Shown piece by piece: positions 710 to 64,000 of a stretch of 64,000 nucleotides of DNA (the stretch's first letter is position 1; each line of letters starts with the position of its first letter). Under the pieces are notes generated by a model. It was not told where the DNA came from and ran no database searches. It saw nothing but the letters and a program-made list of their open reading frames with translations. The position numbers and the translations under genes were made by a program. The stretch is from the IMG/VR virus record IMGVR_UViG_3300025413_000018; one strand, given 5' to 3'. This DNA comes from an uncultured virus (IMG/VR IMGVR_UViG_3300025413_000018) (lineage: Duplodnaviria; Heunggongvirae; Uroviricota; Caudoviricetes).

Positions 710-2389
710 CTAGCCCACATTCACATGAACCGAGGATGGCTTTGCCGTGGATTCAACGTCGGTTATGAAGATCTTGTACTTATTGCAGTCCTTCTTCTTG
801 GATGTTTTGGGTATTAACGAGAGTCCTGTATCTGGTCTGGCACAGAGATCCTTGAGCTTGTAGCCCAGTTTATTACCTTCCAGACCCCGGAGGGCGTCAC
901 GAGAGCTTGTTTCAAGGCTTGTCGTTAACACTTCTCTCAGCTCTAGGGCGGTTCCTACCCAAGGCTTACGGCTTTCGCTAGATGGCAACTTCGCCCACCA
1001 TGCCTGGATAAGTTCGAGTAGACCGCTCTCAGGGCTGGACTGGAAAGCCGCTTCCCTAACCTTCTCGGATATGACGCTCTTTATGCCATACCTGCTCATT
1101 GGATCCGCAACCTCTGCTGGTATTACCCAAGCCTTTAGCCAAGCGAGGAAGTGTGACAACTCTTCGTCAACAATTTTGGAGTATACGGATGGCTCTGGAT
1201 GGTCTAGCCACTGGTGCAGATGTAGAGCAATCATCTTGTCCTCGTTGGACTGATCGAAATCGGGTAGTAACTTGATGGATCTCGGATCGTTGTTCAATCC
1301 TAATACGACACGACCCTTCCACTCGACCATCTTGGCCTGACCGTATTTCTCGTGAAACTTATGTTTTCCCGTTGCGGCAAGTTTCTTAATAACAGCCGAG
1401 TACCTCGATCTCATGGCTTCGCTTGAGGTTCCTTTGCTGTCGTCGATGACCGCAATAGGTGCGTGATATATTTCGCTGTTGAAGCTCGTTTCACCGCTTG
1501 CCATGTCCGAAAGATCGGCACTTCCACCCATAGCCGGCGTTAGGAGTTTCTCGATGATGAAGCTCTTGAAGCACTGAACCGGCCCAACGAGAGCCATGCT
1601 CTGCCCTAGGGCAAGTTCTCCGGCCTCCGCACTCTCGTAGAATCTCTTGAACCAAGCTAGGAAGGTCGTCTTGTAGAGATCAGAATCAAAGACGTTGTCG
1701 AGGATGGCGGCGTACCTGGGGAAGAATTCACCCCAATCTCCGGCTGTCTCTTCCGCAGGGAAGAGCTTTACTCTGGCGGTGTTAAGTAAAACCTCGCCGG
1801 AATCGGTATAGGTCTCGTTCTTGCAGTAGAGACGAGGTGCGGCACCATCGACCTTGCGGTCTTTGCGAATGGTTACCTTGGCACGATCCATCGGTGAGCA
1901 TGAGGCTCCCTTGGGTGCTTTGTCCGAGAATCCACGAACCTTTAGCTCTGCTGTTACCATCGCAACGCTTTCCACGCTCCAGTTCCCGTTGGGGTTCCTC
2001 ATGTAGAAGTTGCGACCATCCCAGTAGAGATCGTCGAAGTGCGCCGTGTTTGCGGCGGCGTTAATAACTGCCGCGCTTACTTCAGCGGCGGCCTCGGCGA
2101 AGAAGCTCGAATTAGCTTCGTCATTCGAGGCTCCCGATTCAGATAGATCAGCTTCTGCATCTTCCCCGTGTCCGTCCTCATCACCTGAGCCAGTCTGGTC
2201 AGCCTCACCGCTGTCAGACTCCCCGAGCACGCTCCCAGAGGGACTACAATCGCCGCTAGATCCGAGGCAATCTTCTGCCAGTGTTTCTTGTCCTTCGCAT
2301 TCACTTCCACAATGGAGTGAGCTGATTGATTCCCCGACAGCGTGATCGATTTGATCGGTAGGGAGAGATTCTTGAGTATCGTTAGCCAT
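710..2389 (-). CDS. Primase-associated P-loop NTPase/helicase (DUF5906/D5-like); start uncertain
   Basis: Degenerate Walker A (LVGPVQCFKS), Walker B-like AVIDD, HEKY motif; adjacent to the primase. The first ~100 codons overlap the primase gene. Confidence 0.7.
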   Translation of the reverse strand: MANDTQESLPTDQIDHAVGESISSLHCGSECEGQETLAEDCLGSSGDCSPSGSVLGESDSGEADQTGSGDEDGHGEDAEADLSESGASNDEANSSFFAEAAAEVSAAVINAAANTAHFDDLYWDGRNFYMRNPNGNWSVESVAMVTAELKVRGFSDKAPKGASCSPMDRAKVTIRKDRKVDGAAPRLYCKNETYTDSGEVLLNTARVKLFPAEETAGDWGEFFPRYAAILDNVFDSDLYKTTFLAWFKRFYESAEAGELALGQSMALVGPVQCFKSFIIEKLLTPAMGGSADLSDMASGETSFNSEIYHAPIAVIDDSKGTSSEAMRSRYSAVIKKLAATGKHKFHEKYGQAKMVEWKGRVVLGLNNDPRSIKLLPDFDQSNEDKMIALHLHQWLDHPEPSVYSKIVDEELSHFLAWLKAWVIPAEVADPMSRYGIKSVISEKVREAAFQSSPESGLLELIQAWWAKLPSSESRKPWVGTALELREVLTTSLETSSRDALRGLEGNKLGYKLKDLCARPDTGLSLIPKTSKKKDCNKYKIFITDVESTAKPSSVHVNVG

Positions 2390-3033
2390 TTTTCTACGGG
2401 TGTGTTGTCCGCCTCGATGAGGCAGTATTTGTATTTGGTGAGAGTTTCTTCGGAGCGACGGCTTTCTTTTCCGAGCCGATCGACGTATTTGGATTCCCCG
2501 CTGACGGGGTTAAGGAGCATCCAAGCACCTGACTTGTTATTTCTGACGGCATTCTCCAGCAGTGCATCAGGAGTCTCGTGACTCCAGACAAGCTGTCCTT
2601 GTGATTGCTCGTTGGTGAAGACGATGGTTTTCTCGTCATCTCCGTAAAGCACCCGAAGGTGATCAGCCGAGGAGAGTCCTTCGACAGCGATAGGGCTGTA
2701 CGACATGATTTCTTCGATACTGGTGTCCGGCTGTGATCCATATTCCTTGATGAGTGCTTCATTGAGTGGTGGTTTGGGTATCGAGAAGCGTTCTTCGGTC
2801 GGGTTGTTGATCTCGACCTTCACCTTACGAAGGGTGTTGGAAACTTCGCTTGGTTGAGGAGGCCGGCTCATCCAGCGATTTACCCAGGCATCGATTGCCT
2901 CATCCGGCCATCCGCCGGCAACCAAGGCATTAACCGCCCGATAGAGCCAAGCGTGGCAACCGGCTCCCGAAGCAGGGCAGGGTGGGATCCAGCCCTCTTC
3001 AGGGGGTGTTTCTGGATCATGTGGCTTAAACAT
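2077..3033 (-). CDS. RepB-like/AEP-type DNA primase
   Basis: Motifs LIEAD, SGNQSAH and RLTRL match RepB-primase patterns. Start placed at ATG 3033, just after a GTAATAACC motif. Confidence 0.7.
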   Translation of the reverse strand: MFKPHDPETPPEEGWIPPCPASGAGCHAWLYRAVNALVAGGWPDEAIDAWVNRWMSRPPQPSEVSNTLRKVKVEINNPTEERFSIPKPPLNEALIKEYGSQPDTSIEEIMSYSPIAVEGLSSADHLRVLYGDDEKTIVFTNEQSQGQLVWSHETPDALLENAVRNNKSGAWMLLNPVSGESKYVDRLGKESRRSEETLTKYKYCLIEADNTPVEKWLTILKNLSLPIKSITLSGNQSAHSIVEVNAKDKKHWQKIASDLAAIVVPLGACSGSLTAVRLTRLAQVMRTDTGKMQKLIYLNREPRMTKLIRASSPRPPLK

Positions 3034-3154
3034 AGGTTGTGGGGTTATTACTCTAGGTGTGAGATTCAATTTATCAACAGATAAACTTCCAGCACCAGGA
3101 ACCCTAAAAGGATAACCATCTGTACCAGAAGACTAGGGAACGAATCGAACCAGT

Positions 3155-3367
3155 TCATGCCATTCCTCCCACGAGTGCGAAGTAATTGGCTACGGCCTTT
3201 AGCTCGGATGCGGTCATGCCTCCGATTGATGAGTCAAGCTCCTTGGCACGGGATGCCGCCCATCCATGAAGGTAAGCGTATCGCATGAATCCTCTGTGAG
3301 TCATGTCCTCGAAGTATCTTACGCCTTCGCTCCTATAGAAATCGTCGAAGTGATCTTCAGCGGTCAT
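3155..3367 (-). CDS. Hypothetical protein
   Basis: 70-aa ORF co-oriented with and overlapping the upstream gene end. Confidence 0.55.
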   Translation of the reverse strand: MTAEDHFDDFYRSEGVRYFEDMTHRGFMRYAYLHGWAASRAKELDSSIGGMTASELKAVANYFALVGGMA

Positions 3368-3500
3368 TTTTCTTAGGCTTCTGGGGTGATGTCTTCTTTT
3401 TCTTGAAGATCCGGTCGTAGTTCTCAGCCCACTTGGTAGCCTTGTAGGGGCGAGGGCGAGGGCCTTTACCGGCGTGAACAGTGTAAATTTCTTGTGTCAT
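3357..3500 (-). CDS. Small basic phage protein (GKGPRPRP...NYDRIF)
   Basis: ATG at 3500 follows a GTAATAACC motif; the motif resembles small proteins seen in aquatic phages. Confidence 0.6.
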   Translation of the reverse strand: MTQEIYTVHAGKGPRPRPYKATKWAENYDRIFKKKKTSPQKPKKNDR

Positions 3501-3514
3501 GGGTTGTAGGGTTA

Positions 3515-5263
3515 TTACTTGGTGTATTGCTTGCAAATCGATGCCTCTGCTCCGAGTGGTAACGACCTGCAAAAGTGTGGTGATGTAGACATGATCTCCT
3601 GTATTTTTGTTCGATCTTTTTCTGCATCTTTTTCATCGACCAGGACTACCACCTCGTCGTGAACTCGCATGATTATCTCGTATCCTGCCTCTTCCAAGGC
3701 TCGGCATCTGTTCATAAAGATCGCCGCGGCAAAACCTTGAGTGGCATTTTCTGCCAGTAGACCTCCGTAAACCTTACTACGAACCATCTTTCCGTTGCGG
3801 CTGATGACCGCAGAAGCTCCGTATCCCTCTCGCTTTACGTCTCGGTAGATCAACGTCCGGTCGTCGGTTAGGTGAATCGTGAACTCTGATCCAACTCCCT
3901 TGATCATCTCTTGTTCAAACTTCTTCCAAAGAGCCACGATCTTTGGGTTAGACCTACGGTAGTCGTCTACGATCCTTGCACTCTCGGTGGGGGATATACG
4001 GAGTCTAGCCATCATCCATGCTACGACTTGGAACTTTGCCGCACCGCATCCGAATCCCAACCCTAGGACACGAGCCTTGGCAAGCTGACGCATATCGTTA
4101 TCGACTTCCTTGAGCGGCCTAGGATCCGAGTAACCCATCGTTGTCCGGGCATGGGCTTCGTAAATATCAATGCCGGTCTTTAAGATCTCTAGGGTGCTTC
4201 GATCCCCAGCAAGGTAAAGAATCACCCTGGACTCGATCTGAGCCAGGTCGCATACGACCAAAGCCTTTCCTTCTGGTGCCTCGATTAGCTTTCGTAGCTC
4301 CACCCCGGCAATCTCACCCTTCGGTAGGTTCTGAGCGTTCCAGCCACCGCCTCCTGAATCCCTTCCGGTCGTAGCTCCGTAGTATTTTATCTCATACCCC
4401 ATGCGCCCATCAGGTCGTGTACGGGAGAGCATAGTGGTTACCGCCTTGAGATGCTTGTTTGCTTTTCTGTAAGCACGCACAGCGGCAATCCAAGGATACT
4501 TGTCCGAGAACTCTTCTTCCCATTCTTGGGCTGATTCCTCCTTCTCGGAGAAGCTATCGGGAGACCAGATGCCTTCTTTCTCACATTCTTCTCGAATTGC
4601 GTGCAGGGAGAGGGGAGGTCGAGGGCCATCTACCCACGGAAGCAAGGCTTTTTGCCTCTCAGACTCCTCGTGTAAGGCAGAAACAGCTCGCTCTAGGGCG
4701 TATTTGTTCACCGGAACGCCTCTCATGGACATTTCTCGACCCATTCTGGAGATTTCCCGCTCATTTTCAGGCCACTTATTTCCTTCTGTTAACCAGAGAT
4801 TTAAGGTGTGTCTGGCGTCTTCGAGGGCGTAATTTGACACTTCTTTCTGAAATTCTGGCGTCATTGAGTCCCATTTCTTGCCTTTCATGTTGTCACGAGT
4901 GGTTTTCGTGAGGTCGATACCAAGGATATAGTGCGCCGCTTCTTTCAGTGACCTAGGCCACCCTAGGAAGGCTACCATATCGGCAGTATCGTATACCGCC
5001 GCCGGCGTTACTTGTGGCACGATACCCTTCTCCTGCAACGCTTCGAGCAGTGTCATGTCGAATGCGGCGTTGTGCATGATCACATTAGCTCCGTTTACCT
5101 GCTCCGTGGGAGCATCCTTTGGGTGACCGACAAATTCGATGCCGGTATCCGATACCATCGAGACCATGTAGATGTCGGTTGCCCTGGCATAGTGCCAAGC
5201 CCCCATTGTGGTTACTGAAATGTCTGCGCTATAGAAGGCTTCAAAGTCTATGGCGATGTTCAT
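3515..5263 (-). CDS. polA: Phage DNA polymerase, family A, with 3'-5' exonuclease
   Basis: ExoI IDFE, ExoII HNAAFD, ExoIII YALED; motif A DLAQIESR, motif B RQLAKARVLGLGFG, motif C VHDE. Start at MNIAIDFE gives an ATGA overlap with the upstream gene. Confidence 0.93.
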   Translation of the reverse strand: MNIAIDFEAFYSADISVTTMGAWHYARATDIYMVSMVSDTGIEFVGHPKDAPTEQVNGANVIMHNAAFDMTLLEALQEKGIVPQVTPAAVYDTADMVAFLGWPRSLKEAAHYILGIDLTKTTRDNMKGKKWDSMTPEFQKEVSNYALEDARHTLNLWLTEGNKWPENEREISRMGREMSMRGVPVNKYALERAVSALHEESERQKALLPWVDGPRPPLSLHAIREECEKEGIWSPDSFSEKEESAQEWEEEFSDKYPWIAAVRAYRKANKHLKAVTTMLSRTRPDGRMGYEIKYYGATTGRDSGGGGWNAQNLPKGEIAGVELRKLIEAPEGKALVVCDLAQIESRVILYLAGDRSTLEILKTGIDIYEAHARTTMGYSDPRPLKEVDNDMRQLAKARVLGLGFGCGAAKFQVVAWMMARLRISPTESARIVDDYRRSNPKIVALWKKFEQEMIKGVGSEFTIHLTDDRTLIYRDVKREGYGASAVISRNGKMVRSKVYGGLLAENATQGFAAAIFMNRCRALEEAGYEIIMRVHDEVVVLVDEKDAEKDRTKIQEIMSTSPHFCRSLPLGAEASICKQYTK

Positions 5264-5505
5264 TTGATAAACAAAGGGTTCTTCGGATTCTTTTCTAGGC
5301 AAGCCGCTTGCCATTCTAGGAGTCGGTCAAGGTCGGCAAAGTTGGACTTGCACCGTGGGCAAATTGGGTCACTGAGCCGAGCCTCACGGGAATTGTTACG
5401 CTTTCCCTTGGCACCACAGGCTATGCAAGTATACCGGCGTCGAGGCAACGATTCTCCTGCGGCCTTGGCTACGTTTGGGTCTAGTTCATTTTCGTAGTCC
5501 CTCAT
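5260..5505 (-). CDS. Zinc-ribbon protein
   Basis: CIAC...CPRC cysteine pairs; ATGA overlaps on both sides. Confidence 0.65.
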   Translation of the reverse strand: MRDYENELDPNVAKAAGESLPRRRYTCIACGAKGKRNNSREARLSDPICPRCKSNFADLDRLLEWQAACLEKNPKNPLFIK

Positions 5506-5711
5506 TCTTGAACTCGATATAGGTGTATTCTTAGAGCTTTAGGCTCACCTAGTTTTTCCATGAAGTAGACCTCGGCGTTTTGAAGCCCTAGACCTGCATC
5601 GATTAAAAATGCTTTGAGTTGACGAGCCAACTCCATGCCTTCATCCAGTTGGATGTCTTCCCCAGTTTTTAAGTCTCTGGCAAATCTGTGCAATCGTGGG
5701 TCAGTCTTCAT
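5502..5711 (-). CDS. Hypothetical protein
   Basis: 69-aa ORF with ATGA coupling on both sides. Confidence 0.6.
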   Translation of the reverse strand: MKTDPRLHRFARDLKTGEDIQLDEGMELARQLKAFLIDAGLGLQNAEVYFMEKLGEPKALRIHLYRVQE

Positions 5712-6361
5712 TTTTGTTTCAGCTTCTGGATCTCATCGCGAAGGTAGCGGATAGCCCTTGCTGTGTGAACGCATGACCATTCGATTGATGCGATGTCGGC
5801 ATCCAGCGGCATCTCCCCCTGCTTTGGCGACGGGCGGCGGGTGCGGAAACGAAGAAACTTATAACAACTTGCATCTGCCCCAATCATTTCATCAATAACA
5901 GGTTTATATTGCGGCTGGCCCTTCCATCGGGTCTCATCCCCCTCTTGTATTACCTCGTCAGGGCCAAGCTCTCGCCATTCGGTGTCCTTTTGAGAAGGAC
6001 AGGTTTCGGTGGATGTGTCCTTTTCTGAAGTTTCCTCTGTCGTTGGGGTGAGTTGCTGAATCTGCGACCTGTAGTAACTTCTGCGGTCTGGATCTTCGAT
6101 GTATTCGACTATGATTGAAGCGACCTCATGCAGTTGTTTGAACTTGGCATCGGTATTCCCCTCATGGGTGAATTCCGGTGCAGGATCTAAACTGACGGGT
6201 TCCTTGCAATCGCAATGGCTGAACTTGTGCGTAGTGTTGGCGCAAGTTGGGTTAGCTGGTTCCGTTACATTTCCTATGCACTTGTCGGGATGTGTTGAGG
6301 TTTCTGGTTCCTTGCCAGCAAAGAACGTGGTAGTTGAATTGACGGGTTTAAGTGGGTTCAT
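5708..6361 (-). CDS. Hypothetical protein, possibly mosaic
   Basis: Long ORF, likely start MNPLKP at 6361; contains a WRELGPDEVIQEGDE segment. Confidence 0.55.
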   Translation of the reverse strand: MNPLKPVNSTTTFFAGKEPETSTHPDKCIGNVTEPANPTCANTTHKFSHCDCKEPVSLDPAPEFTHEGNTDAKFKQLHEVASIIVEYIEDPDRRSYYRSQIQQLTPTTEETSEKDTSTETCPSQKDTEWRELGPDEVIQEGDETRWKGQPQYKPVIDEMIGADASCYKFLRFRTRRPSPKQGEMPLDADIASIEWSCVHTARAIRYLRDEIQKLKQK

Positions 6362-6389
6362 ATTCTTATTGAATGCGGTGTTGATGTTT

Positions 6390-6731
6390 TTATTGGTTGT
6401 GCGGCTTTTGAATGGCATCTCGGATTTCTTGACCCCTTGTAGGGCTGATGCCATCCATCATATCAGCAGCCCATTCGCATACCTCACGGAGCCTTGCGAC
6501 CTCTTTCTCCTGTTCGATAAAAGCCTGTTTGCATTTTTGCGCCTTGGAAGCCTCATCCCTGTAGTGCTGATGATAGTTGGAAACCTCGTTGGTTTTCTCG
6601 GCGAGTTCGATTTCAATAGTTTCAGCCACATAAGCCATATATAGGTATGCTTCATAATCGGTCTTTTGACCGTTGAATGCGGTATGTCTCGCTTGATTCG
6701 TCCTCGGTGTTGGTGTGGTGTTGGAGTTCAT
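6390..6731 (-). CDS. Coiled-coil small protein, TPRT...ELAEKTNEV paralog 1
   Basis: Shares N-terminal TTPTPRT and ELAEKTNEV blocks with neighbouring ORFs. Confidence 0.6.
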   Translation of the reverse strand: MNSNTTPTPRTNQARHTAFNGQKTDYEAYLYMAYVAETIEIELAEKTNEVSNYHQHYRDEASKAQKCKQAFIEQEKEVARLREVCEWAADMMDGISPTRGQEIRDAIQKPHNQ

Positions 6732-6871
6732 TTTGTTATTAGATGTGCGATGAGTTTTATTATTAGATACGCACCCCAGAATGGGACAATGCAGAGGATG
6801 AACTTTCCTTCTCCCTTGAGCATGAACCATGCAGCCCTTGCTCTTCTTTCAATGATTTCATAGATTTTCAC
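6728..6871 (-). CDS. Small membrane protein (47 aa, not in ORF track)
   Basis: GTG start, MKIYEIIERRARAAWFMLKGEGKFILCIVPFWGAYLIIKLIAHLITK; ATGA overlap with the next gene. Confidence 0.5.
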   Translation of the reverse strand: MKIYEIIERRARAAWFMLKGEGKFILCIVPFWGAYLIIKLIAHLITK

Positions 6872-6901
6872 TGGTTAGTAAACTTGTGGTGTTTCAGTAA
6901 A

Positions 6902-7210
6902 CTAGGAGGGTTTATCGTTCGGGTTGTGGTTGAGTTGTTCTTGGTACCTAATGCGTGTTTCAAGGGTCTCTGCAAAGTTGTGGAGTTGTTTAATGATAGC
7001 CTCGGCTTTCTCGGCTCGTCCTTTCCAATGCTCGGCGAGTTTGTCGCCACGCTTTGCGGCATCCATGACCATCTCCTTGAGTCGAGCTACCTCGTTGGTT
7101 TTTTCGGCGAGTTCGCGTTCTAGCTGACGGCATAATCTGCTCATATAGTGGGCTTTACCTGATGCTAGTAATTGGTAAGTCCTCGGCGTTGGTGTGGTGT
7201 CGGGGTTCAT
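6902..7210 (-). CDS. Coiled-coil small protein, paralog 2
   Basis: MNPDTTPTPRT...LERELAEKTNEVARL. Confidence 0.6.
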   Translation of the reverse strand: MNPDTTPTPRTYQLLASGKAHYMSRLCRQLERELAEKTNEVARLKEMVMDAAKRGDKLAEHWKGRAEKAEAIIKQLHNFAETLETRIRYQEQLNHNPNDKPS

Positions 7211-7383
7211 TTGACTTTTATTTCGTTGTTTGGTGTGCATGGTGGGGTGTTGTGGAAGAGTTCCAGCTTCACCCATTCAAGAACCGCTAGGGTATCCATG
7301 ACTTCCATATTTCCGTAGCGGCCCCGGATGAGTTGCCAGAGTTCGTTTTTGAAGTATTCGCGTTCGCTAGTGTCGAAGTTCAT
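7207..7383 (-). CDS. Hypothetical protein (58 aa, not in ORF track)
   Basis: MNFDTSEREYFKNELWQLIRGRYG...; fills the gap with ATGA overlaps at both ends. Confidence 0.55.
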   Translation of the reverse strand: MNFDTSEREYFKNELWQLIRGRYGNMEVMDTLAVLEWVKLELFHNTPPCTPNNEIKVK

Positions 7384-7757
7384 TTGGTGAGTTGGTTGAG
7401 TTGTTCGCGGTATCTGTCGGCTAAACGATGGGCCGTGAATGCGGTCAGCTTCGGAGTCTGGAATGGAACTTTCTCTAGCTCAAAAAGGACTTTTCCCAGA
7501 AGCTCACGGAGCCTTGCGACTTCGCGTTCAAGCTCTCTGGCTAAATCCCAGATTTGATAAGATTTAATTTCTTGGTTGTAATCTAATTCATCTACGCGAG
7601 GCGTGGCGACCTCGTTGGTTTTCTCGGCGAGTTCTCGTTCCAAAGCTCTACAAGCTGAACTCGGAACAACTATTGCTTTAAGACCCATGGCTTCTTCAGC
7701 CTGATCCGTGAACGGTGTATCACTTACTTTGCTAGTATCAGTATCTTGTAAATTCAT
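7380..7757 (-). CDS. Coiled-coil small protein, paralog 3
   Basis: SDTPFTD...LERELAEKTNEVA...LEREVARLRE. Confidence 0.6.
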   Translation of the reverse strand: MNLQDTDTSKVSDTPFTDQAEEAMGLKAIVVPSSACRALERELAEKTNEVATPRVDELDYNQEIKSYQIWDLARELEREVARLRELLGKVLFELEKVPFQTPKLTAFTAHRLADRYREQLNQLTK

Positions 7758-7821
7758 AAAAAAGTGCCGGTCTTTCCCGACTGCCATGCCCGTTTATCCT
7801 CTGAGGGCAATAGAGCAACTT

Positions 7822-8352
7822 CTAGTTCTTGCGAGGACGACCACGCTTTTTGGTCATTCCTGAAGCAACCTTTAGTAGGTTGATCTGCTTCTTCTGCTCT
7901 TCTGCGTAGGCTTTCATAATGTCGAGAGCCTCGGAGTATAGAGTTACCATCTTGTTCAGCCTCTCTATCTCTTCCTCTTGAGTGAGGTTCATGCAGAGAG
8001 ATTCCTCGAACATCTCGGAATTATCGTGATGGCTTTGATCCGCTAGAACCCTGCGAATCCATCGGGTGAACCTACGGATCATGGGAACCTGTTCCTCATC
8101 CTCTTCCGGTGGGATACAGCACCCATCACAGCCGTGAGGATGGTCACAGCCGTAGATATCATCTGGGTCTGGATGACCGATACCATGAGGACAGATACGC
8201 TCGGTGATTCCAAGATCACCCCTGTAGTGTTGAGGCCAATCTGCCATGTGATGATCACTTGGATTATGGACAGGGCAGAAGTCTCCCATGCAACGATCCT
8301 CGCTGTGGGTGATTAGTTCCTGATCGCTTTTGTGTGGTTTCCAGATGCTCAT
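7822..8352 (-). CDS. His/Cys-rich hypothetical protein
   Basis: CPVHNPSDHH...ERICPHGIGHPDPD...HGCDGCC putative metal-binding domain; C-terminal RGRPRK AT-hook-like tail. Confidence 0.65.
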   Translation of the reverse strand: MSIWKPHKSDQELITHSEDRCMGDFCPVHNPSDHHMADWPQHYRGDLGITERICPHGIGHPDPDDIYGCDHPHGCDGCCIPPEEDEEQVPMIRRFTRWIRRVLADQSHHDNSEMFEESLCMNLTQEEEIERLNKMVTLYSEALDIMKAYAEEQKKQINLLKVASGMTKKRGRPRKN

Positions 8353-9059
8353 ATAATTTCTAAGAGTGCGGTTTTGAGGTCTTCGATTGATCCAAGATTC
8401 TTGAGAACCTTCTGCCCTAGGAGATCCTGCGTCTCACTTGAGTGCTCGTAGCTTATGGTCTTAATTCCCAGCTCCAGGTCAGTTCTAATAACCCGATGGA
8501 CATCGCCACCAAGCTCACCGATGACATCGATTTCGTTTTGGAAACGAACATCGTCAACTACGACCTTACGACCATTGGATAGCCACTTTTCGATGGTTCT
8601 CTTGGTGATATGAGCCCAGATATTCTGACCGATGCAGTTGCGACCCCACTCTGTTCCGAGGGTCTGCATAGCAAACCTTGGGCTTTTCCAGTTGAGAGCC
8701 GCTAGTCCTTCCTCTTTAAGGTCTCCCTCTAGGGCGGATACAATGGTTTTGTTGTCCATGCCGGATTCCTCCAGAACGACCCTGAGCATCCTCTTTAGGA
8801 CATCGGCAAAACGAACACGAACAAATCCATAGTCTTCCGTTAGGATCTTTGCCGCTGTTGATTTGCCTGCTCCAGCTAGGCCGGAGAACCCGATAAGATT
8901 AACCTCATTGACCTGCTTCTCACCGATAAGATCTTCGATCTGCTTCCTATAGTGAGAAATCAAACGAAAGTGATCGTCCGTAGTGATATAAAGACGCTCA
9001 TCGTGAACGTAGCTTGGGATAACCTTATCCCCTGAATAAATGACTCCGTGTGTTTCCAT
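8349..9059 (-). CDS. Deoxynucleoside monophosphate kinase
   Basis: GLAGAGKST P-loop, FADVLK, PRFAMQTLGTEWGR, DDVRFQNE and HSSE motifs typical of phage dNMP kinases. Confidence 0.88.
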   Translation of the reverse strand: METHGVIYSGDKVIPSYVHDERLYITTDDHFRLISHYRKQIEDLIGEKQVNEVNLIGFSGLAGAGKSTAAKILTEDYGFVRVRFADVLKRMLRVVLEESGMDNKTIVSALEGDLKEEGLAALNWKSPRFAMQTLGTEWGRNCIGQNIWAHITKRTIEKWLSNGRKVVVDDVRFQNEIDVIGELGGDVHRVIRTDLELGIKTISYEHSSETQDLLGQKVLKNLGSIEDLKTALLEII

Positions 9060-9073
9060 GTATAAGAAAGTTT

Positions 9074-9105
9074 GTAGGGCGACAGCCTTTCGACTGCCGC
9101 CCTAC
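9074..9105 (-). terminator. GNRA-capped hairpin after the SSB gene (terminator or stabiliser)
   Basis: GTAGGGCGGCAGTC-GAAA-GGCTGTCGCCCTAC, followed by only a weak U tract. Confidence 0.6.
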
Positions 9106-9112
9106 GCATGGT

Positions 9113-9874
9113 TTAGGCTAACGAGGAGATCATTGCCGCCGTCTCGCTATCCACGAGACCTGCGGTCTTAATCGTTGGTGTCCACCAAGAGTTCTTGGTG
9201 TTGGCGGTAAGCTTGCTACCAAGCTCCCAGAGGCCACCCTGAAGGCCGGTTGTTGCAAGATGCCCACGAAGGCTACTAGCGAGGGTTACGGCAATCTGAC
9301 CATAGGCTGTCGAGCTTGCGGTGTAGATCACACGGGCAAAACGCTTGTCCCCTGCAACATTGTAGAAGAGTGCATCTGCATCCTCGTCAAGGTTGTCAGG
9401 TGCCTGAACGAGAAGCTCAATGTGAGCCAACTCGCTGAAGAGATCCGTTCCACGCTCGCGGGAAACACGACCTCCATTGGCTGTAACCTCTGCGGCTGTG
9501 TTAAAACGACGAACCGGCACTCCTGCCTTTTGCTCATCGAATGGGATGTTCTCCTGATACTGCTTGAGCATACGAAGGGCGATGACCGTAAGGGGAGCAC
9601 CCTTGGCTTTATCCTCCAACTTGGTGATCTGGTGAGTGCCTTCGAGCAACCAAGTACCAGGTGTGAAGTTATCTGCACGCTCGCCGGACTTATTGACCAG
9701 TGAGAGGCGTGGGAGCTTCGTGTCCTCGCTAGTCCACTCTCCGATAAGCCCTTTGGAGGCATCGGCAATAGGAGCGGCAATAACTACCTGCTGTGGGGCG
9801 ACCACCGCTACTGCGGTGCTGACTTCCGGCGTAGCCGGTGTGGTTTCAATGTCTGTGAATGATACTTTTGACAT
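9113..9874 (-). CDS. Putative single-stranded DNA-binding/annealing protein
   Basis: Lies between the nuclease and polymerase genes; LPRLSLV and NSWWTP patterns resemble phage SSBs. Inference. Confidence 0.5.
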   Translation of the reverse strand: MSKVSFTDIETTPATPEVSTAVAVVAPQQVVIAAPIADASKGLIGEWTSEDTKLPRLSLVNKSGERADNFTPGTWLLEGTHQITKLEDKAKGAPLTVIALRMLKQYQENIPFDEQKAGVPVRRFNTAAEVTANGGRVSRERGTDLFSELAHIELLVQAPDNLDEDADALFYNVAGDKRFARVIYTASSTAYGQIAVTLASSLRGHLATTGLQGGLWELGSKLTANTKNSWWTPTIKTAGLVDSETAAMISSLA

Positions 9875-9973
9875 GGTGTGTTGTTTTGTTGGTGTGTTGT
9901 ACACTTTCACAACCTGTAAGGTTATTACTCGCGATGGGTTTTAGACCGACGTTCGTTCAATACGTTCAAATAA

Positions 9974-12358
9974 TTATTTAGATTTTTTGAGATACAGAAT
10001 TGTGCCGTCAACTTTGGCGGCATTGGCGTCGATCAAAGCGTCTCTTAGCGCAGTCTTGGCCTTGCCCATCTGGCCTTTCTCGGCGACACGGGCAATGGCT
10101 TTTTCTAAATCTCCGATCTTGACTTCGGCGCAGGAGGCGAATGCTTCGGGGGTGATCTTCGTTTTAACCACTTCCCATGCGGCTTGGGAGTCCACGATCT
10201 TGAATGGTTCCGATTTCTCAGCCAGTTCCCAACCAGGAATCTCAATACCTTCCTGAACACGCATCTCCAGCGCACGGGCGTTCACCTTGGAAGCCCAAGC
10301 CTCCATGATTGGGGCTACCTTCTTAGCCAGAGCCATCTGCTCTGGATCCGTGATGTTGGCAGGATCGTACTTATCCGGTAATACCAACTCATCGGCTTTG
10401 TAGCTGGTAGCTATTGTAATAGCTAAGTTGTTTAAGGTGGGACAGGTTGCTCGGTTATTACACCATGCACAATGAGCACCGGACTGGTAATTTGCAGAAT
10501 CGTTCCTCTTAGCGGCCTCGATGATCGCTAGGGTAGCCGCAGAGAGACGGTCGAGATCGTGTTCACGAGTCCAGGTAACGATATCGATGATGTTCTGGAA
10601 CGGTAGCAGAACATGAACTGTGAGTTGTTCTAGCTCAGGATGATCGTTGAAGATACCGACAGCGTAAGCCCAGAACTGGGGGCTATCTGCCTCGTACTTT
10701 CCGAAAGCGAACTTGTGGTCTACCAGCTCCCCATAACGCCCTTCGTTATGGATAATCAGATGATCGATATGCCCGAACTGATCGTGCATATGGTAACGAC
10801 GCTCCCTGATCTCCTCGTACTTCCCGACGCACTTGCTACGCAGGTGAGCCAGATATTTCAAGCATCGCTCTGCGGCCTCCCTGAGTGGTTGATCGTCCAG
10901 GGGAATGATCTCGGTGTTTTCAATCTCAACGGCCTTGTGCCCTAGGGTACCTCGGTTTGCCGCCGACTTATCCCTGGTCTGGTCGTTCCTGAAGCCACAG
11001 CATTTTGCCTTCTCCTTGAGTGAAGATGGGCTGTGCTCGGCGTGGTCACGGAGTTCCGTGTCTTCTGCGGTGGATTTAACGACGACCGCTTCGTCTTGTT
11101 TTGGTTTCATAATTCCTTCGTTAAAAATTCGTGTGTTTTCTCTTTTGTGTCCGGTCACTCCAAGAGCTGACTTTTCTATCGTTCCTTCCACATAGAGGCG
11201 CAGGGCTAGGGCACGGCTTTTGGCTCCTACCCGTGAGATACGACCGATGGCCTGCTCCTCCATTGTCCCGGAGAACTGAGGGCACAGAAGAGCCGTCCTA
11301 GGGCAGTTTCCTGTGGTATCGTGTAGATCGATTGACTGCCCTCCGGCTCCTATCTGGACAATTAGCTTTTTGTGCTGACCGCTCTGGAAGTGTGACTGAA
11401 TTCTAAAACGCACATCTTGAGGAATCCGACCATCTATGACCGGACAATCTAGCATGGCTTTTGCTTGGTCTATTGAGTCATGAAAATTCAAAAATATCAC
11501 ACAGCTTCCTCCCTCGGAGACAATCTCTTCGGCTCTTTCGACCAGGTATGGAATCTTTACCTTCTCTATGGCCTGACGCTGACGGAGATTTTTTACTGCC
11601 CCGATGTCGTCAGGATTGGACATCTCTTTGTACAATTCTTCGATCGTTTTTCTATCAGCCGGCGATATAGAGATCGGTTCATCCGATACGGTAAGCTCTG
11701 GCAGTTGGGCTTTTAGAGTCTCTTCGGATACCCTGTATCCTCTAGGGCCAAAGATGCTCTCGTGGAGCCGGTTCATCTTTTCTTTGTTTTTTGGGTTTTT
11801 TGCGTCCCATTCCAAACCTCCGAATACACCATCGGTAGCTCCCATCTTGCGAACCCAAGACCAGTATTCAGAAGGATTAAAAAGTCGTAGCGTGGATCCT
11901 ATAGCCCGTAGTTTTAAGGGGGATTCGGCGGCAGTTGCCGATAGAAGTAGAACTCGGTAATTCCCTTGTGCCGCTAGAAGCATCTTTGCGTTTAGGGAAT
12001 TAGAAGCTGAATACATATGCGCCTCGTCAAATATCAGAAGAGCCCCGACAGGAAGTGTCCACTTGATGCCTTTTCCTACTTTCTTCACGAAATCAGTATT
12101 TCCTGCCCGTAGTTTTTCGGGGTTCAAAACAAACAGCGGACTTACTCCAAAAGCGTTAAGCGTTTGCTCCCATTTTTTTAACACCGACTTTGGGCAGATA
12201 ACCGCCACTGGTAGGGCAAATCTTTTGGCTACCTCACTTGCAATGACGGTTTTTCCTCCTCCACATCCGGTTCCGTCAATGGATGCACCTACCTGATCTA
12301 ATACTTTCAGGTGATGATTTACCGCCTCTTGCTGAAATGGGAATAGGGTGAATGTCAT
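9974..12358 (-). CDS. SF2 helicase fused to a Cas4-like PD-(D/E)XK nuclease (DUF2800-like)
   Basis: GCGGGKT, DEAH, SAT and QAIGRISR helicase motifs; C-terminal half has SPSSL..C, GTLGH, GHID, VDHKF, QFWAYA and CAWC-x5-C. Confidence 0.85.
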   Translation of the reverse strand: MTFTLFPFQQEAVNHHLKVLDQVGASIDGTGCGGGKTVIASEVAKRFALPVAVICPKSVLKKWEQTLNAFGVSPLFVLNPEKLRAGNTDFVKKVGKGIKWTLPVGALLIFDEAHMYSASNSLNAKMLLAAQGNYRVLLLSATAAESPLKLRAIGSTLRLFNPSEYWSWVRKMGATDGVFGGLEWDAKNPKNKEKMNRLHESIFGPRGYRVSEETLKAQLPELTVSDEPISISPADRKTIEELYKEMSNPDDIGAVKNLRQRQAIEKVKIPYLVERAEEIVSEGGSCVIFLNFHDSIDQAKAMLDCPVIDGRIPQDVRFRIQSHFQSGQHKKLIVQIGAGGQSIDLHDTTGNCPRTALLCPQFSGTMEEQAIGRISRVGAKSRALALRLYVEGTIEKSALGVTGHKRENTRIFNEGIMKPKQDEAVVVKSTAEDTELRDHAEHSPSSLKEKAKCCGFRNDQTRDKSAANRGTLGHKAVEIENTEIIPLDDQPLREAAERCLKYLAHLRSKCVGKYEEIRERRYHMHDQFGHIDHLIIHNEGRYGELVDHKFAFGKYEADSPQFWAYAVGIFNDHPELEQLTVHVLLPFQNIIDIVTWTREHDLDRLSAATLAIIEAAKRNDSANYQSGAHCAWCNNRATCPTLNNLAITIATSYKADELVLPDKYDPANITDPEQMALAKKVAPIMEAWASKVNARALEMRVQEGIEIPGWELAEKSEPFKIVDSQAAWEVVKTKITPEAFASCAEVKIGDLEKAIARVAEKGQMGKAKTALRDALIDANAAKVDGTILYLKKSK

Positions 12359-13088: not shown

Positions 13089-13105
13089 AGAAGGTTACAA
13101 GGTTA

Positions 13106-13270
13106 TTACTCAAGGCCAAAGAATTTACGGACGGCTTCTCGAATGATTGAAGAAACAGACCGACCCGTCCTGGCACGCTCCTCGCGGAGTCGTGCTTCTA
13201 GGACAGGATCACTTGGAAAAGATCGAATGAGTTTAGGGTTTCGATTCGACGAGGGATTCTCTGAGTTCAT
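13106..13270 (-). CDS. RHH (CopG-like) protein, 54 aa, not in ORF track
   Basis: MNSENPSSNRNPKLIRSFPSDPVLEARLREERARTGRSVSSIIREAVRKFFGLE; G-x-S-x-S-x-x-IR-x-A RHH signature. Confidence 0.7.
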   Translation of the reverse strand: MNSENPSSNRNPKLIRSFPSDPVLEARLREERARTGRSVSSIIREAVRKFFGLE

Positions 13271-53892: not shown

Positions 53893-54108
53893 ATGAGTCT
53901 CTGGGGCGAGGATAGTTCCATCACTCCTCCCGGAGGGTGGTACTACATTCAACCGGGAACCCGGTTCAGGTTCGAGGCTAATACCCTAGGGCAACTGGAG
54001 GATAAGGTTTCGGCCCACCGGCGGGGAAATAACATCACCCTAGGGCACCCTAGGGAGGATATCCTGGCGTGGACGCGTTCCCGCCTGGGTGGTGAAGAAG
54101 TGCTCTAG
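53893..54108 (+). CDS. Hypothetical protein
   Basis: PPGGWYYIQP motif; last plus-strand gene. Confidence 0.55.
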   Translation: MSLWGEDSSITPPGGWYYIQPGTRFRFEANTLGQLEDKVSAHRRGNNITLGHPREDILAWTRSRLGGEEVL

Positions 54109-55132: not shown

Positions 55133-55156
55133 AACAAAGGTTACGCGGTTATTACC

Positions 55157-55300
55157 CTAGGGCTGTGCTTTGTCAATGGGCTTTTTTAACTTCGAGTTCA
55201 TCCTCCTGGCAATGGCCTCAAACTCCCTAGAGCAACTAGGGCAGGCGTGGGGTTTGCAGGGTGTCTGACACCTAGGGCATTTATGGATTTTAGGAGGCAC
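55157..55300 (-). CDS. Small zinc-ribbon protein (47 aa, not in ORF track)
   Basis: GTG start, MPPKIHKCPRCQTPCKPHACPSCSREF..., two CxxC pairs. Confidence 0.5.
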   Translation of the reverse strand: MPPKIHKCPRCQTPCKPHACPSCSREFEAIARRMNSKLKKPIDKAQP

Positions 55301-56678: not shown

Positions 56679-56738
56679 GGTGTGTTGTGTTGTTGTTTGG
56701 GTTGTGCCCTAGGGATCGAACTCTAGGGCTGTGATTGT

Positions 56739-60526: not shown

Positions 60527-60610
60527 TGACCTAGTGCTCATCAGTGCATGGTGGTCAGCCATACAGACACCCTAGGGTTGGGCGGTTAAGACACCCCTAG
60601 GATGTTTCGC
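60527..60610 (-). ncRNA. Hammerhead ribozyme, type II (HH-2)
   Basis: GC-GAAA-C-AUCCUAGGG-loop-CCCUAGGGU-GUC/UGUAUGG-CUGACCA-CCAUGCA-CUGAUGA-GC, with tail GGUCA pairing loop I UGACC. Confidence 0.9.
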
Positions 60611-60650
60611 GTTCAATCTTTCTACCTACTACTACCCGCTGGTGTCGGGT

Positions 60651-61775
60651 TTACTCTGTTAACGCCGGCTCGGCCTTGTACTTGAGCTGGTCGATTGTGC
60701 AGTCCGTTCGGGCGATGTCATCACGCTCGCCCAGGTACACGGGCTGGAACAACGAGCCGCCTTCGTAAGCATAGAGATACTGAACCTCGATCACCGATCC
60801 GATGGACGGTATCGGAATCGTACCTCCGATGGTGACGTTACCTATCGGTGTGAGTATGGGGCTTCCGTCTGCTGGATCGTAGACACCCATTCCAACCGAA
60901 CGCTTGCCTTCGGTGTGCCCAGTCACAACGACCGATGCCGTAGCAACGAACTTGAACTTGAGTTGCGTACCGCCGGATGCCGGACGGCCTGACTTGTACG
61001 CAGACATCTTCCGCTTGAACACGACTCCCTCGCCCCTCTCTTCCTTGATCACGGTGAACGCTTCACGCTTCGTTGCGTTAGTGTGCCATGACAATACCCA
61101 GTGAATGCAGTTGTCGTGACGGCTCGGCTTGCCAGCGAGGAGGTTCATCAGCTTGGTCAGACGGAAGTGGTAGGAGTTCTCCGTCATGTCCGTACCTCCT
61201 AGGGAGAGCAGATCAAAGACATGGTACTGATCCCCGATCAACTCGCCGTCGATAATGAAGTCCTGCCCTAGGTCTTCCGCCTGCTCTAGGACATTGGCTG
61301 GGATGCCACACTCCAATCCGGTTCGGTTGGTTCCGAAGACACGGCTTCCGGTTCGGTGCAACAGGATACGCTTGCCGTCCATCTTGGGTTGCATGAGCCA
61401 GTTGTCGTCCATGAACAGACGCTCCAGCTCCGACTCATCCACGGGGTTGAGGAGCTGTGGCAACACTCGGTCTGCCATCGGTGGTGGCTCGGCGACTGGC
61501 GTGGCCGGAGCCGTCATCTTGGGAGCCGAGGTGCTACTGATCTCGGTGTACCCCTTGGCTTTCTTCTCGTTGACGATCTTGGTGTAGAGGATCAATGCCG
61601 CCGTCGCGGATACAGGAGTCATGGTTTTCGTTCCATGATTCATGGTTCCTCCACGGCGTCCGTATGTGAAGTTGACGCAGTAGCCGTCTTTGACCATCTC
61701 ATCCACTCGGATGCTGTACACCTTGTCGCTACTGCCTTCGCAGTACCCTAGGGTTGTTGATACGATTGTGCTCAT
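60651..61775 (-). CDS. WGR domain fused to a minimal ATP-dependent ligase
   Basis: WGR: SDKVY...YGRRG...KGY. Ligase motifs: KMDGKR, IDGEL, VFDLL, EGVVFK, LKFK, plus a C-terminal OB-like domain. Confidence 0.85.
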   Translation of the reverse strand: MSTIVSTTLGYCEGSSDKVYSIRVDEMVKDGYCVNFTYGRRGGTMNHGTKTMTPVSATAALILYTKIVNEKKAKGYTEISSTSAPKMTAPATPVAEPPPMADRVLPQLLNPVDESELERLFMDDNWLMQPKMDGKRILLHRTGSRVFGTNRTGLECGIPANVLEQAEDLGQDFIIDGELIGDQYHVFDLLSLGGTDMTENSYHFRLTKLMNLLAGKPSRHDNCIHWVLSWHTNATKREAFTVIKEERGEGVVFKRKMSAYKSGRPASGGTQLKFKFVATASVVVTGHTEGKRSVGMGVYDPADGSPILTPIGNVTIGGTIPIPSIGSVIEVQYLYAYEGGSLFQPVYLGERDDIARTDCTIDQLKYKAEPALTE

Positions 61776-63115: not shown

Positions 63116-63238
63116 TTACTTGTTGCGAAGATCCCAGTACCGAAAGACCCGCTTGCCGTACTCGGACAGCTTGCCTTCCTTGATGACCGGCAGTCGCTTC
63201 GCCTTCGCCCAGCGGAGGAACATCATCTGCTTAATCAT
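63116..63238 (-). CDS. Small basic protein (40 aa)
   Basis: MIKQMMFLRWAKAKRLP...; overlaps the upstream stop and ends in GTAATAACC. Confidence 0.5.
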   Translation of the reverse strand: MIKQMMFLRWAKAKRLPVIKEGKLSEYGKRVFRYWDLRNK

Positions 63239-63650
63239 CTGATTCGATGTCGGCTCCGAACAGGTTGACCAAGACATCGACCAGTCCCCACGCCAAGGCG
63301 ACTGCTGGCTTGGGTGTCCCGATGTCTGGGTCACTCGTATCGACCGAGCTGATCTTCGCCTCCCACCAAGGGGAGCTGACGCTTGGGTAGTAGATACCTC
63401 TCTCGATATGGCAGAGCAGGATCTCGGCCACGCCATGTTGTCCTAGGGTAATCTCGTACCCTTCGTGGTCTCCTGGCACTCCATCCTTCTTGATCAACTC
63501 CTCGAAATACTCGGTGAGAATCGGAAGGATCAGCGGGCTGTACTCATCCGCAAAGTCGCTCATGTCAGCGAACTCCTTGCGTGCTTTGAGATCGTTGGCG
63601 ATCTGCTCTAGGACTGCGATGTCCAAGGTAGGTGTCGGTGTCGTTACCAT
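63231..63650 (-). CDS. Hypothetical protein
   Basis: 139-aa acidic ORF with a CA-rich leader. Confidence 0.6.
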   Translation of the reverse strand: MVTTPTPTLDIAVLEQIANDLKARKEFADMSDFADEYSPLILPILTEYFEELIKKDGVPGDHEGYEITLGQHGVAEILLCHIERGIYYPSVSSPWWEAKISSVDTSDPDIGTPKPAVALAWGLVDVLVNLFGADIESDD

Positions 63651-63684
63651 AGTGTGTGTATGTGTTGCTGTGGGTGTGCGGTTA

Positions 63685-63789
63685 TTACTGCTGGGGATAG
63701 AGTAGGTAGATGATCCGGCAACCTAGGGCAACCAAAAGAAACCCTAGAACGCAGGTGAGTCTGATCAACTTGTAATGATCCTCGGTCAT
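63685..63789 (-). CDS. Small membrane peptide (34 aa)
   Basis: MTEDHYKLIRLTCVLGFLLVALGCRIIYLLYPQQ; start abuts a palindrome and the stop lies in GTAATAACC. Confidence 0.5.
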   Translation of the reverse strand: MTEDHYKLIRLTCVLGFLLVALGCRIIYLLYPQQ

Positions 63790-63814
63790 AATCGTGTACA
63801 GGATTGTTGGGTTA

Positions 63815-64000
63815 TTACCGGATGGCGTAGGCCGCTTCGGCAAGATCCTCGATGAATGCCGCACGAGCCTGCTTCATGGTGTAGCCCATGTAGACCTGAC
63901 GAATGAGGCGGTTGTTGTAGACGGCGGACGCAAGAAGCGATCCGTTGTGCTGACGCTCCAAGATTACTTGAACCCTAGGGACTGCTGGCTTGGCAACAGG
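63815..64000 (-). CDS. Hypothetical protein (5' truncated by window edge)
   Basis: Open frame ...ERQHNGSLLASAVYNNRLIRQVYMGYT...; stop lies in GTAATAACC. Confidence 0.55.
   Translation of the reverse strand, partial: PVAKPAVPRVQVILERQHNGSLLASAVYNNRLIRQVYMGYTMKQARAAFIEDLAEAAYAIR

Follow-up and report, generated by a model that had tools for sequence, protein, structure and literature searches.

A HIP-like iterated CCTAGG palindrome in an uncultured tailed phage and in a few Hymenobacter genomes

To our knowledge, the function of highly iterated palindromes (HIPs) has been an open question since the 1990s, and work on them has been confined to cyanobacteria. According to the accessible portions of three papers, biased repair has been proposed to account for HIP1, GCGATCGC (Elhai, 2015, PMC4390886), selection on HIPs has been argued for (Xu, Lawrence & Durand, 2018, PMC5861425), and HIP1 may serve as an uptake signal (Rodriguez-Cruz et al., 2026, PMC13756078). 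The same portions give HIP enrichments of 15-300-fold (Xu et al., 2018) and ratios of observed to expected counts (O/E) of 55-228 at 300-2700 copies per Mb (Elhai, 2015). They further describe a bias of one-letter deviations toward the outer positions, link each HIP to a methyltransferase of the same genome that recognizes the full palindrome or its core (Elhai, 2015), and report site conservation beyond neutral expectation and periodic spacing at 10-90 kb (Xu et al., 2018). Here we describe a word of this kind, the palindrome CCCTAGGG (core CCTAGG, flanks Y/R), in a 64,000-nucleotide stretch of DNA from an uncultured tailed virus (IMG/VR record IMGVR_UViG_3300025413_000018; Caudoviricetes), which we call the window. 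The word is best explained as a HIP-like palindrome comparable to HIP1. An earlier model reading made from the letters alone (the sequence-only reading) had already labelled it HIP-like, and all the tests run on it (shuffles, frames, variants and context saturation) uphold that label. In their accessible portions the three papers do not mention CCCTAGGG, and neither 'phage' nor 'CTAG' occurs in that of Elhai (2015); in a search of an open-access library, with supplementary tables outside its reach, neither CCCTAGGG nor CCTAGG came up as a word iterated in phages or in Hymenobacter.

The window holds 38 copies of CCCTAGGG, which range from 1604-1611 to 63973-63980, compared with a mean of 0.79 and a maximum of 3 in 100 dinucleotide shuffles. 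CCTAGG occurs 97 times (mean 13.7 and maximum 23 in the dinucleotide-preserving shuffles), and the earlier estimates of about 97 and about 38 were exact. These are the top hexamer and the top octamer of the window. The density of CCCTAGGG, 594/Mb (1516/Mb for CCTAGG), is 48 times that of the dinucleotide null, 17 times that of a third-order Markov null and, for the coding copies, about 30 times that of a synonymous-codon null. For the last of these, 72 open reading frames (ORFs) were called by a crude procedure covering 94.5% of the window, with two likely wrong-strand calls replaced by the ORF on the opposite strand, and synonymous codons were shuffled for 300 rounds within each gene, preserving the proteins and the per-gene codon usage. 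The shuffled windows contained 9.0 copies on average, 8 of which are the untouched intergenic ones. Coding copies therefore number 30 against about 1 expected (z 28.6), and a shuffle of codon order agrees. The enrichment thus persists under the kind of shuffle under which the sequence-only reading had considered that it might vanish. The 8 copies outside ORFs lie in 3.6 kb of non-coding DNA, where the word is 4.5 times denser.

Inside genes the word is read as xCC-CTA-GGG in 21 cases and as xxC-CCT-AGG-G in 9, never in the frame that reads TAG, and it occurs in genes of both strands. Outside the eight letters, flanking information is at most 0.15 bit at every position. One-letter variants exceed expectation at the outer positions (44 against 13.2 at position 1, 34 against 6.9 at position 2) and not at the inner ones (2 against 5.6 at position 3, 5 against 5.2 at position 4). 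The enrichment of one-mismatch variants reported from the letters is borne out by TCCTAGGG/CCCTAGGA (32 against 5.4 expected) and CTCTAGGG/CCCTAGAG (19 against 2.5); CCTTAGGG and CCCCAGGG/CCCTGGGG are each absent from the window. The word is near saturation of its compatible coding contexts: 21 of the 52 [SPTA]-L-G contexts are written as CCCTAGGG and 12 more as CCCTAGGA, as are 9 of the 15 x-P-R-[VADEG] contexts as CCCTAGGG, where fewer than one context would be realised if codons were chosen independently. The protein sequence itself is slightly bent toward compatible tripeptides, with 52 [SPTA]LG against 38.6 in amino-acid shuffles (P 0.023), a count that lies below expectation in word-free relatives. 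What characterizes the word is a high density genome-wide and not a set of fixed places, a density set mostly by synonymous codon choice with slight bending of the proteins.

Spacing along the window is Poisson-like, with a coefficient of variation (CV) of 1.04; between 19 and 64 kb the CV is 0.76 (P 0.07), and regular spacing was rejected as non-significant. Most CCTAGG sites are solitary, more than 250 bp from their neighbour. The left part of the window (1..19250, with replication genes, integrase, terminase and an AT-rich block) is poor in the word, with 3 CCCTAGGG and 12 CCTAGG, and realises 3 of its 14 contexts against 24 of 43 in 19251-54200. As the sequence-only reading had noticed, the capsid-like gene (28184-29518), the integrase gene (13811-15052) and the AT-rich genes (17118-19214) have no CCTAGG at all. 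Its general remark that phages usually avoid palindromes also holds for the window, this word excepted: 35 of the 64 palindromic hexamers are absent or nearly so (O/E below 0.15). Depletion of CTTAGG was considered as a possible footprint of repair (O/E 0.49 in the window and 0.19 in the relative G007) and discarded as uninformative, because the word-free relative G008 is also depleted (0.30).

The distribution of the word among related phages was followed from the capsid-like protein, which as a query gave 49 IMG/VR loci, 14 records of which were analysed whole. The relative G007 (72.9 kb, 56% GC) has 28 copies of CCCTAGGG, and five partial relatives have 10-14 each. CTAG is depleted overall in G007 (83 against 277 by base composition), yet one third of all its CTAG sit in CCCTAGGG. 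In G009 all 31 YCCTAGGR are confined to the stretch from 33 to 62 kb, the remaining ~40 kb being free of CCTAGG, while G008 and G416-G418 have 0-2 CCTAGG. The word tracks lineage and module, not gene function. Its flanks differ as well, C or T depending on the phage clade, and C, G or A depending on the Hymenobacter species. G007 also contains 36 CCCCAGGG/CCCTGGGG against 3.1 (Markov) and 7.8 (codon null), CCCCAGGG itself being about 12-fold enriched, and at aligned places in the G007 clade these forms and CCCTAGGG (together CCCYRGGG, with TA versus CA/TG centres) interchange in 6 cases, a comparison of three taxa and no outgroup that gives no direction. Individual sites are rarely kept at larger distance: 1 of 12 aligned window sites is kept in G007, where one more reads CCCCAGGG; 1 of 14 in G009, where one more reads TCCTAGGG; and 0 of 17 in G008. 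Among relatives 82-94% identical, 30 of 45 sites are kept against 19.6 expected for random octamers, although the pairs overlap, are not independent and are few, so that we regard this above-background retention as weak to moderate.

The word is also found in cells. Among the at least 122 matches listed in a scan of genome contigs for two copies within 30 bp, Hymenobacter polaris appeared twice and H. bucti once, and whole-genome counts gave 3302 copies in the 5.6 Mb of H. polaris (G422), that is 590/Mb, and 943 in H. bucti. In a sample of 251 Hymenobacteraceae genomes, five hold 902-3302 copies; the next have 178, 128 and 117, and most have 1-30, well under what composition predicts. A further word-rich genome, G661, reaches 549/Mb, against 594/Mb in the phage, and CCTAGG stands at 1245-1430/Mb in three word-rich Hymenobacter genomes sampled. 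The codon anatomy is the same: over 200 kb of H. polaris the three frames are used 69, 15 and 0 times, 44 of 128 sites fall in the 14% of non-coding DNA, and the flanks are weak. Contexts of the [SPTA]LG and xPR types are realised in 69 of 219 and 15 of 54 cases in H. polaris and in 40 of 94 and 13 of 31 in G661, against 0 of 43 and 0 of 23 in a word-poor relative. A prophage-like viral contig, L333, which is unrelated to the phage of the window and 72-77% identical to a G661 contig, contains 7 CCCTAGGG and 19 CCTAGG in 20 kb and, as in its host, no GATC (48 expected). L333 mirrors G661, and the word therefore exists in cells and in at least one of their viruses. In the Hymenobacter prophage pair compared, 1 of 7 sites is kept against a background of 0.20.

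These observations suggest that the phage of the window shares its word with its own host lineage, a proposal that we consider evenly balanced between right and wrong. It is suggested by the occurrence of the same word, with the same anatomy and density, in a few Hymenobacter and one prophage-like virus, by the HIP-like anatomy and saturation in the window, by a distribution that in the phage family follows clades and modules, by flank dialects that vary in like manner among phage clades and among Hymenobacter species, and by the fact that Pfam found no methyltransferase in the phage. The word would then not be an invention of the phage; it would be shared with the cell lineage in which the phage replicates and in which, bearing an integrase, it probably also resides. 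One and the same cellular process, the one behind the abundance of the word in some bacterial chromosomes, would act on phage DNA, or be exploited by it, and the phage's own host would be expected to carry the word. Such a process could be a sequence-directed repair or conversion bias, or it could be selection, with a cellular DNA-reading system (an uptake-, recombination- or Chi-type reader) taking the word as 'self'; it would not be the classical route through 5-methylcytosine (5mC) and Vsr.

Several results weigh against this proposal, whose step from Hymenobacter to the phage's own host is built on analogy. GATC is nearly purged from three word-rich Hymenobacter (O/E 0.01-0.02 in G422, G661 and G421, loci L223-L242; 0.36 in the word-poor G563 and 0.65-0.83 in three low-GC members of the family), in contrast to 0.98 in the window and 0.83-1.06 in all 14 relatives. 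The palindromic-hexamer profiles of the window and of word-rich Hymenobacter are uncorrelated (rho -0.03 to 0.12), and the phage terminase has no match in the five word-rich Hymenobacter genomes. Taken together, these three results make it probable that this phage has a host other than the word-rich Hymenobacter. The sequence-only reading had suggested using the word as a handle on the host: it did lead to bacterial genomes with the same word, but probably not to the host itself. The APS kinase of the window likewise has no match in word-rich Hymenobacter and is 46% identical to that of a Phormidium. Surveys that sampled the respective groups, and not the full collection, gave no genome at HIP level among 401 cyanobacteria (at most 346 CCCTAGGG per 4.1 Mb), among 401 Cytophagales besides the centre genome (at most 120), among 401 genomes of a betaproteobacterial order (at most 37; 4 unpublished, all low) or among 10 hand-picked genomes. 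Nor was anything at HIP level present in 5 metagenome-assembled genomes (MAGs) from lakes or elsewhere. The same counting gave 4099 copies of GGGATCCC in the 3.0 Mb of one cyanobacterium, and so does detect such words. The word-free ~40 kb of G009 beside its word-rich half imply that whatever writes the word is inactive there now or has not been acting for long, and the retention of sites among close relatives is as compatible with selection acting on the phage as with a continuing drive.

Other records touch on the identity of the host. Two unrelated viral contigs, L310 and L320, are rich in CCTAGG with normal GATC, a hint of further word-bearing hosts. Cultured relatives of the phage are too distant for the host to be read from them: the best matches of PolA, lysin and helicase among them do not exceed 32% identity, and none was obtained for the capsid-like protein. 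In the ESM Atlas the terminase falls in viral clusters only. GTAC is completely purged in nine relatives (G007, G412, G414, G415, G009, G008 and G416-G418; O/E 0.00-0.03), and ACGT in three (0.00-0.05), neither being purged in the window (GTAC 0.69, ACGT 0.58); the relatives are therefore exposed to restriction of differing kinds, and so to differing hosts or strains. In cyanobacteria with paired copies, counts of 284-503 per 4.4-6 Mb stay below HIP level and come in part from a 36-37-bp repeat located at the ends of contigs. In the cyanobacterial MAGs G002 and G003, the recurrence of CCCTAGGG pairs 36-37 bp apart at contig ends points to a small, dispersed repeat; in the same genomes the word is 4-5-fold over chance. 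The copies in G423 (a Porphyromonas MAG), G425 and G1041, in tandem with 16 or 22-23 bp spacing and often at contig ends, are repeat arrays and not a dispersed word.

Explanations that need no shared host lineage have to be weighed against this evidence. That the word is a mere by-product of peptide motifs or of codon or dicodon usage deserves hardly any credence: two thirds of the coding copies do spell x-L-G, and [SPTA]LG is mildly raised, but the codon shuffles leave about one coding copy, and the use of two frames and both strands together with the non-coding copies confirms the sequence-only reading that this is not a peptide motif. That reading had also offered a passive mutational sink, in which deamination of 5mC in CCWGG, unrepaired by Vsr, turns CCAGG into CTAGG. 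CCWGG is indeed depleted (90 against ~158), and the interchange of CCCTAGGG with CCCCAGGG/CCCTGGGG in the G007 clade is of the expected kind. However, CCWGG is equally depleted in G008, which has no CCTAGG, and the comparison of products that was proposed along with the idea speaks against it, CTAGG+CCTAG standing at 311 against ~116 and the sister product CTTGG+CCAAG at 236 against ~203. The sink predicts neither the preference for flanking C/G nor the 40-60% saturation, nor does it account for the enrichment of CCCCAGGG itself in G007, and with about one CCCCAGGG expected per strand the precursor cannot feed 38 sites. Pfam detected neither a C5 methyltransferase nor Vsr in the phage, and in the five word-rich Hymenobacter Vsr is found in none and a C5 methyltransferase (PF00145) in one. 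We thus consider the sink very improbable. A palindrome might instead be kept as a building block of RNA or DNA hairpins, since any two copies can pair and give terminators or stems. The intergenic stems pointed out in the sequence-only reading (27973-28017, 29527-29586 and 56706-56729) do fold well (z -4.8 to -6.4), and 7 pairs of CCTAGG, some of them within ORFs, lie 25-29 bp apart against 0.74 expected, a distance at which they can form stems. One pair also serves as the stem of a sub-threshold hammerhead-like fold. Such structures would nevertheless explain roughly 14-20 of the 97 CCTAGG, most sites being single; short pairs are almost absent in the relatives, and four other intergenic copies fold no better than shuffles, which makes this explanation quite unlikely.

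Rather unlikely, in our estimate, yet a serious rival, is a cis-acting signal intrinsic to the phage, read by a phage or host protein, with selection holding its density independently of the host sequence; a signal at the DNA level had also been raised in the sequence-only reading. The word could be a Chi-like stop or modulator for a helicase-nuclease, could be bound by a protein that condenses or packages the DNA, or could mark phage DNA as self and so protect it, and a palindrome would be orientation-free on a circularly permuted genome. Such a signal agrees with the retention of sites in close relatives (8 of 9 against 0.41 and 9 of 10 against 0.72 in individual comparisons), with the concentration of the scarce CTAG of G007 in the word, with a density ~7-10 times that of any sampled cyanobacterium, with the circular or permuted genome, and with the fact that no host of this phage was identified among the genomes sampled. 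Every member of the family encodes a fusion of an SNF2 helicase with a PD-(D/E)XK nuclease, but this protein is equally conserved (~63%) in word-free relatives. A 501-aa MoxR-type AAA_5 ATPase and, next to it, a 558-aa protein without a family hit (window 56739-59997, minus strand; also in G007, G009, G010, G419 and G420) are present in 6 of 6 complete genomes with an iterated word and in 0 of 4 without (G008, G416-G418). This link, however, passes in part through the TCCCAGA heptamer of G010-type phages; the pair lies inside the exchanged module of G009, and it resembles NorQ/midasin-type MoxR proteins, which are not DNA readers. As a driver of the word the pair was set aside, being phylogenetically confounded and of a fold family without a DNA link, and is kept as a weak lead. 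The Poisson-like spacing and the single window site kept in G007 also speak against a phage signal, under which the identity of word, density and codon anatomy with Hymenobacter would be a coincidence. The TCCCAGA heptamer itself occurs about 51 times per 72 kb in G010, G419 and G420, on both strands and without conserved flanks, mostly in the first 33 kb in G010; as a word analogous to CCCTAGGG it was rejected, at only 2.9 times the codon null and close to other words at 2.3 times.

The window covers ~64 of the 66 kb of a tailed phage. A second record, G001, is the same phage (99.985% identity), and 2.3 kb of it link the window end to its start; the genome, ~66.3 kb, is therefore circular or circularly permuted. 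Annotated products are a family-A DNA polymerase (PolA), a DUF5906 primase/helicase-like protein, an SNF2 helicase fused to a DUF2800 nuclease, a RuvC-like resolvase, a dNMP kinase, an integrase, a large terminase, a GH108-type lysin, a tail-collar protein, a 3384-aa protein with an LPD37 domain, the MoxR-type AAA_5 ATPase, an ATP-dependent ligase and an APS kinase; RNA genes are one tRNA-Cys and a type II hammerhead ribozyme. With Pfam (E<=0.001), the 72 window ORFs, 7 ORFs of the missing 2.3 kb and 77 ORFs of G007 gave no match to a DNA methyltransferase domain. The positions of the word and of the structures built from it are collected in Table 1.

Table 1. Copies of CCCTAGGG and structures involving the word or its core in the window
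Feature	Coordinates	Strand	Gene or location	Remarks
CCCTAGGG	1604..1611		primase/helicase-like gene 710-2389(-)	A-L-G
CCCTAGGG	10940..10947		SNF2-helicase/DUF2800 nuclease gene 9974-12358(-)	T-L-G; sole site also CCCTAGGG when aligned to G007
CCCTAGGG	13673..13680		gene 13457-13747(-)	A-L-G
CCCTAGGG	19299..19306		APS-kinase gene 19211-19645(+)	S-L-G
CCCTAGGG	22186..22193		gene 21590-22426(+)	P-R frame
CCCTAGGG	25348..25355		gene 23493-25853(+)	A-L-G
CCCTAGGG	26854..26861		gene 26642-27955(+)	P-R frame
Intergenic hairpin	27973..28017	+	upstream of capsid-like gene	two CCCTAGGG (27977, 28004), then U-run; terminator-like; -31.4 kcal/mol, z -6.4
Hairpin	29520..29595	+	after capsid-like gene	CCCTAGGG 29562 paired with variant CCCTAGAG 29545; -44.7 kcal/mol, z -6.3
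CCCTAGGG	30003..30010		intergenic, between 29596-30000 and 30018-32654	
CCCTAGGG, two copies	31117..31124, 32542..32549		gene 30018-32654(+)	both A-L-G
CCCTAGGG	33849..33856		gene 33650-34273(+)	A-L-G; CCTAGG 15 bp upstream
CCCTAGGG	37005..37012		gene 36980-37915(+)	A-L-G
CCCTAGGG	38019..38026		gene 37948-39195(+)	P-R frame
CCCTAGGG	38934..38941		gene 37948-39195(+)	P-R frame; aligned place in G007 is CCCCAGGG
CCCTAGGG	39323..39330		gene 39199-39669(+)	A-L-G
CCCTAGGG, two copies	40205..40212, 40961..40968		gene 40165-41490(+)	both A-L-G
CCCTAGGG, nine copies	43988, 45827, 49088, 49659, 49916, 51375, 51747, 52469, 52907 (43988..52914)		gene 43735-53889(+), 3384 aa	9/17 compatible contexts
CCTAGG pair	48418..48452		within ORF	29 bp apart; can form 10-bp stem (one of 7 such pairs)
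CCCTAGGG, three copies	53984, 54038, 54048 (53984..54055)		gene 53893-54108(+), 71 aa	aligned in G009: 54038 is CCCTAGGG, 54048 is TCCTAGGG
CCCTAGGG	55155..55162		intergenic	adjoins a GGTTATTA word
Intergenic hairpin	56701..56724	-		CCCTAGGG (56707) paired with CTCTAGGG (56721); -12.9 kcal/mol, z -4.8
Hammerhead_II-like RNA, sub-threshold	60530..60612	-		stem of CCCTAGGG 60570 and CCTAGG 60596; 27.3 bits, gathering score 37
CCCTAGGG	61746..61753		ATP-dependent DNA ligase gene 60651-61775(-)	T-L-G
CCCTAGGG	63048..63055		gene 62971-63183(+)	P-R frame
CCCTAGGG	63973..63980		window end, outside called genes	

The type II hammerhead ribozyme at 60055-60118 (minus strand) scores 43.5 bits, above the Rfam gathering score, and has no CCTAGG inside. 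A second one, for which the sequence-only reading had proposed a stem made of the word, does use the CCTAGG pair 60571/60596, but as a Hammerhead_II it stays below threshold (Table 1). The two hammerhead-like copies, 470 bp apart, flank a small gene (60118-60495). The AT-rich block at 17118-19214 (38-47% GC), with genes for a glycine-rich-domain protein and for a sulfotransferase-like protein beside that of the APS kinase, has the appearance of recently acquired DNA and may be a sulfation cassette. Another word, GGTTATTA/GTAATAAC, is iterated as well, with 26 copies in the window against 1.4 expected (for example at 55145-55154 and 28019-28030). It is common to nearly all relatives, CCCTAGGG-free ones included, and 12 of its 24 copies in G007 are intergenic; it is probably a family-wide promoter-like signal.

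It is tempting to speculate that CCTAGG palindromes represent a second, independent HIP system outside the cyanobacteria. We offer this tentatively and hold it to be somewhat doubtful. The system would be sporadic (five of 251 Hymenobacteraceae, one clade and some modules of the lake-phage family, and L310 and L320), with flank dialects particular to each lineage, and this pattern would suggest a horizontally moving factor that writes or selects the word by a route other than methylation and Vsr, the phages showing the imprint of whichever factor they had coexisted with. In that case the HIP question, now 30 years old, could be approached by experiment in a cultivable Hymenobacter together with its phages. 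The sharp presence or absence of the word between close relatives gives a comparative handle on the responsible gene. The evidence against the 5mC/Vsr route applies to this word, and the system allows a test of whether phages take such words from their hosts, in which case the words would become host-prediction markers. The half-and-half pattern of G009 may help to establish when mosaic phages exchanged modules. The same kind of word, with saturation at the codon level, is now found in a phage family and in a few Bacteroidota whose close relatives avoid it.

DNA uptake sequences (DUS) of Neisseria and uptake signal sequences (USS) of Pasteurellaceae are short words found about once per kb, in several frames within genes, enriched between genes and often paired in terminator hairpins, and they are common to the cell and to some of its phages. 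In density, use of several frames, intergenic enrichment and hairpin pairing CCCTAGGG resembles them, a likeness drawn here from sequence alone; unlike them, it is palindromic. Chi sites, recognized by RecBCD or AddAB, are host-specific words of 5-8 nt that are over-represented on the chromosome and protect some phages from exonuclease. CCCTAGGG is likewise an over-represented short word and as a palindrome would act from both ends, whereas Chi is asymmetric and strand-skewed, and no nuclease link was found for CCCTAGGG. CCTAGG is also the site of AvrII/BlnI-type restriction enzymes. The same six letters are strongly depleted, as if restricted, in G008, in G416-G418 and in most sampled Hymenobacteraceae and cyanobacteria, whereas in this phage they are enriched, the opposite of restriction avoidance. 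A Dcm/Vsr very-short-patch bias is not matched, given the unequal excess of CTAGG and CTTGG and the failure of Pfam to find a C5 or Vsr domain in the phage, and neither is a repeat of the repetitive extragenic palindrome (REP) or miniature inverted-repeat transposable element (MITE) type, given the lack of flank conservation and the 30 of 38 copies that lie in frame inside genes.

HIP1 itself differs in its core, which is GATC where the present word has CTAG, and in its occurrence in cyanobacteria, where the present word is in a phage and in Bacteroidota. Each HIP is tied to a methyltransferase in the accessible portion of Elhai (2015); the phage has no cognate enzyme recognizable by Pfam, and no single family is common to the five word-rich Hymenobacter, where PF01555 (N4/N6 methyltransferases) was found in three of five, the searches covering this family and the C5 enzymes. 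With no methyltransferase found and with its place outside the cyanobacteria, the word works like a HIP without being a member of the HIP1 family. As far as HIP1 is described in those portions, the likeness extends to a GC-rich 8-bp palindrome with a 4-bp palindromic core, a density (594/Mb) within the range given for HIP1, occurrence within and between genes in more than one frame and without conserved flanks, deviations concentrated in the outer letters, and dialects that follow the lineage.

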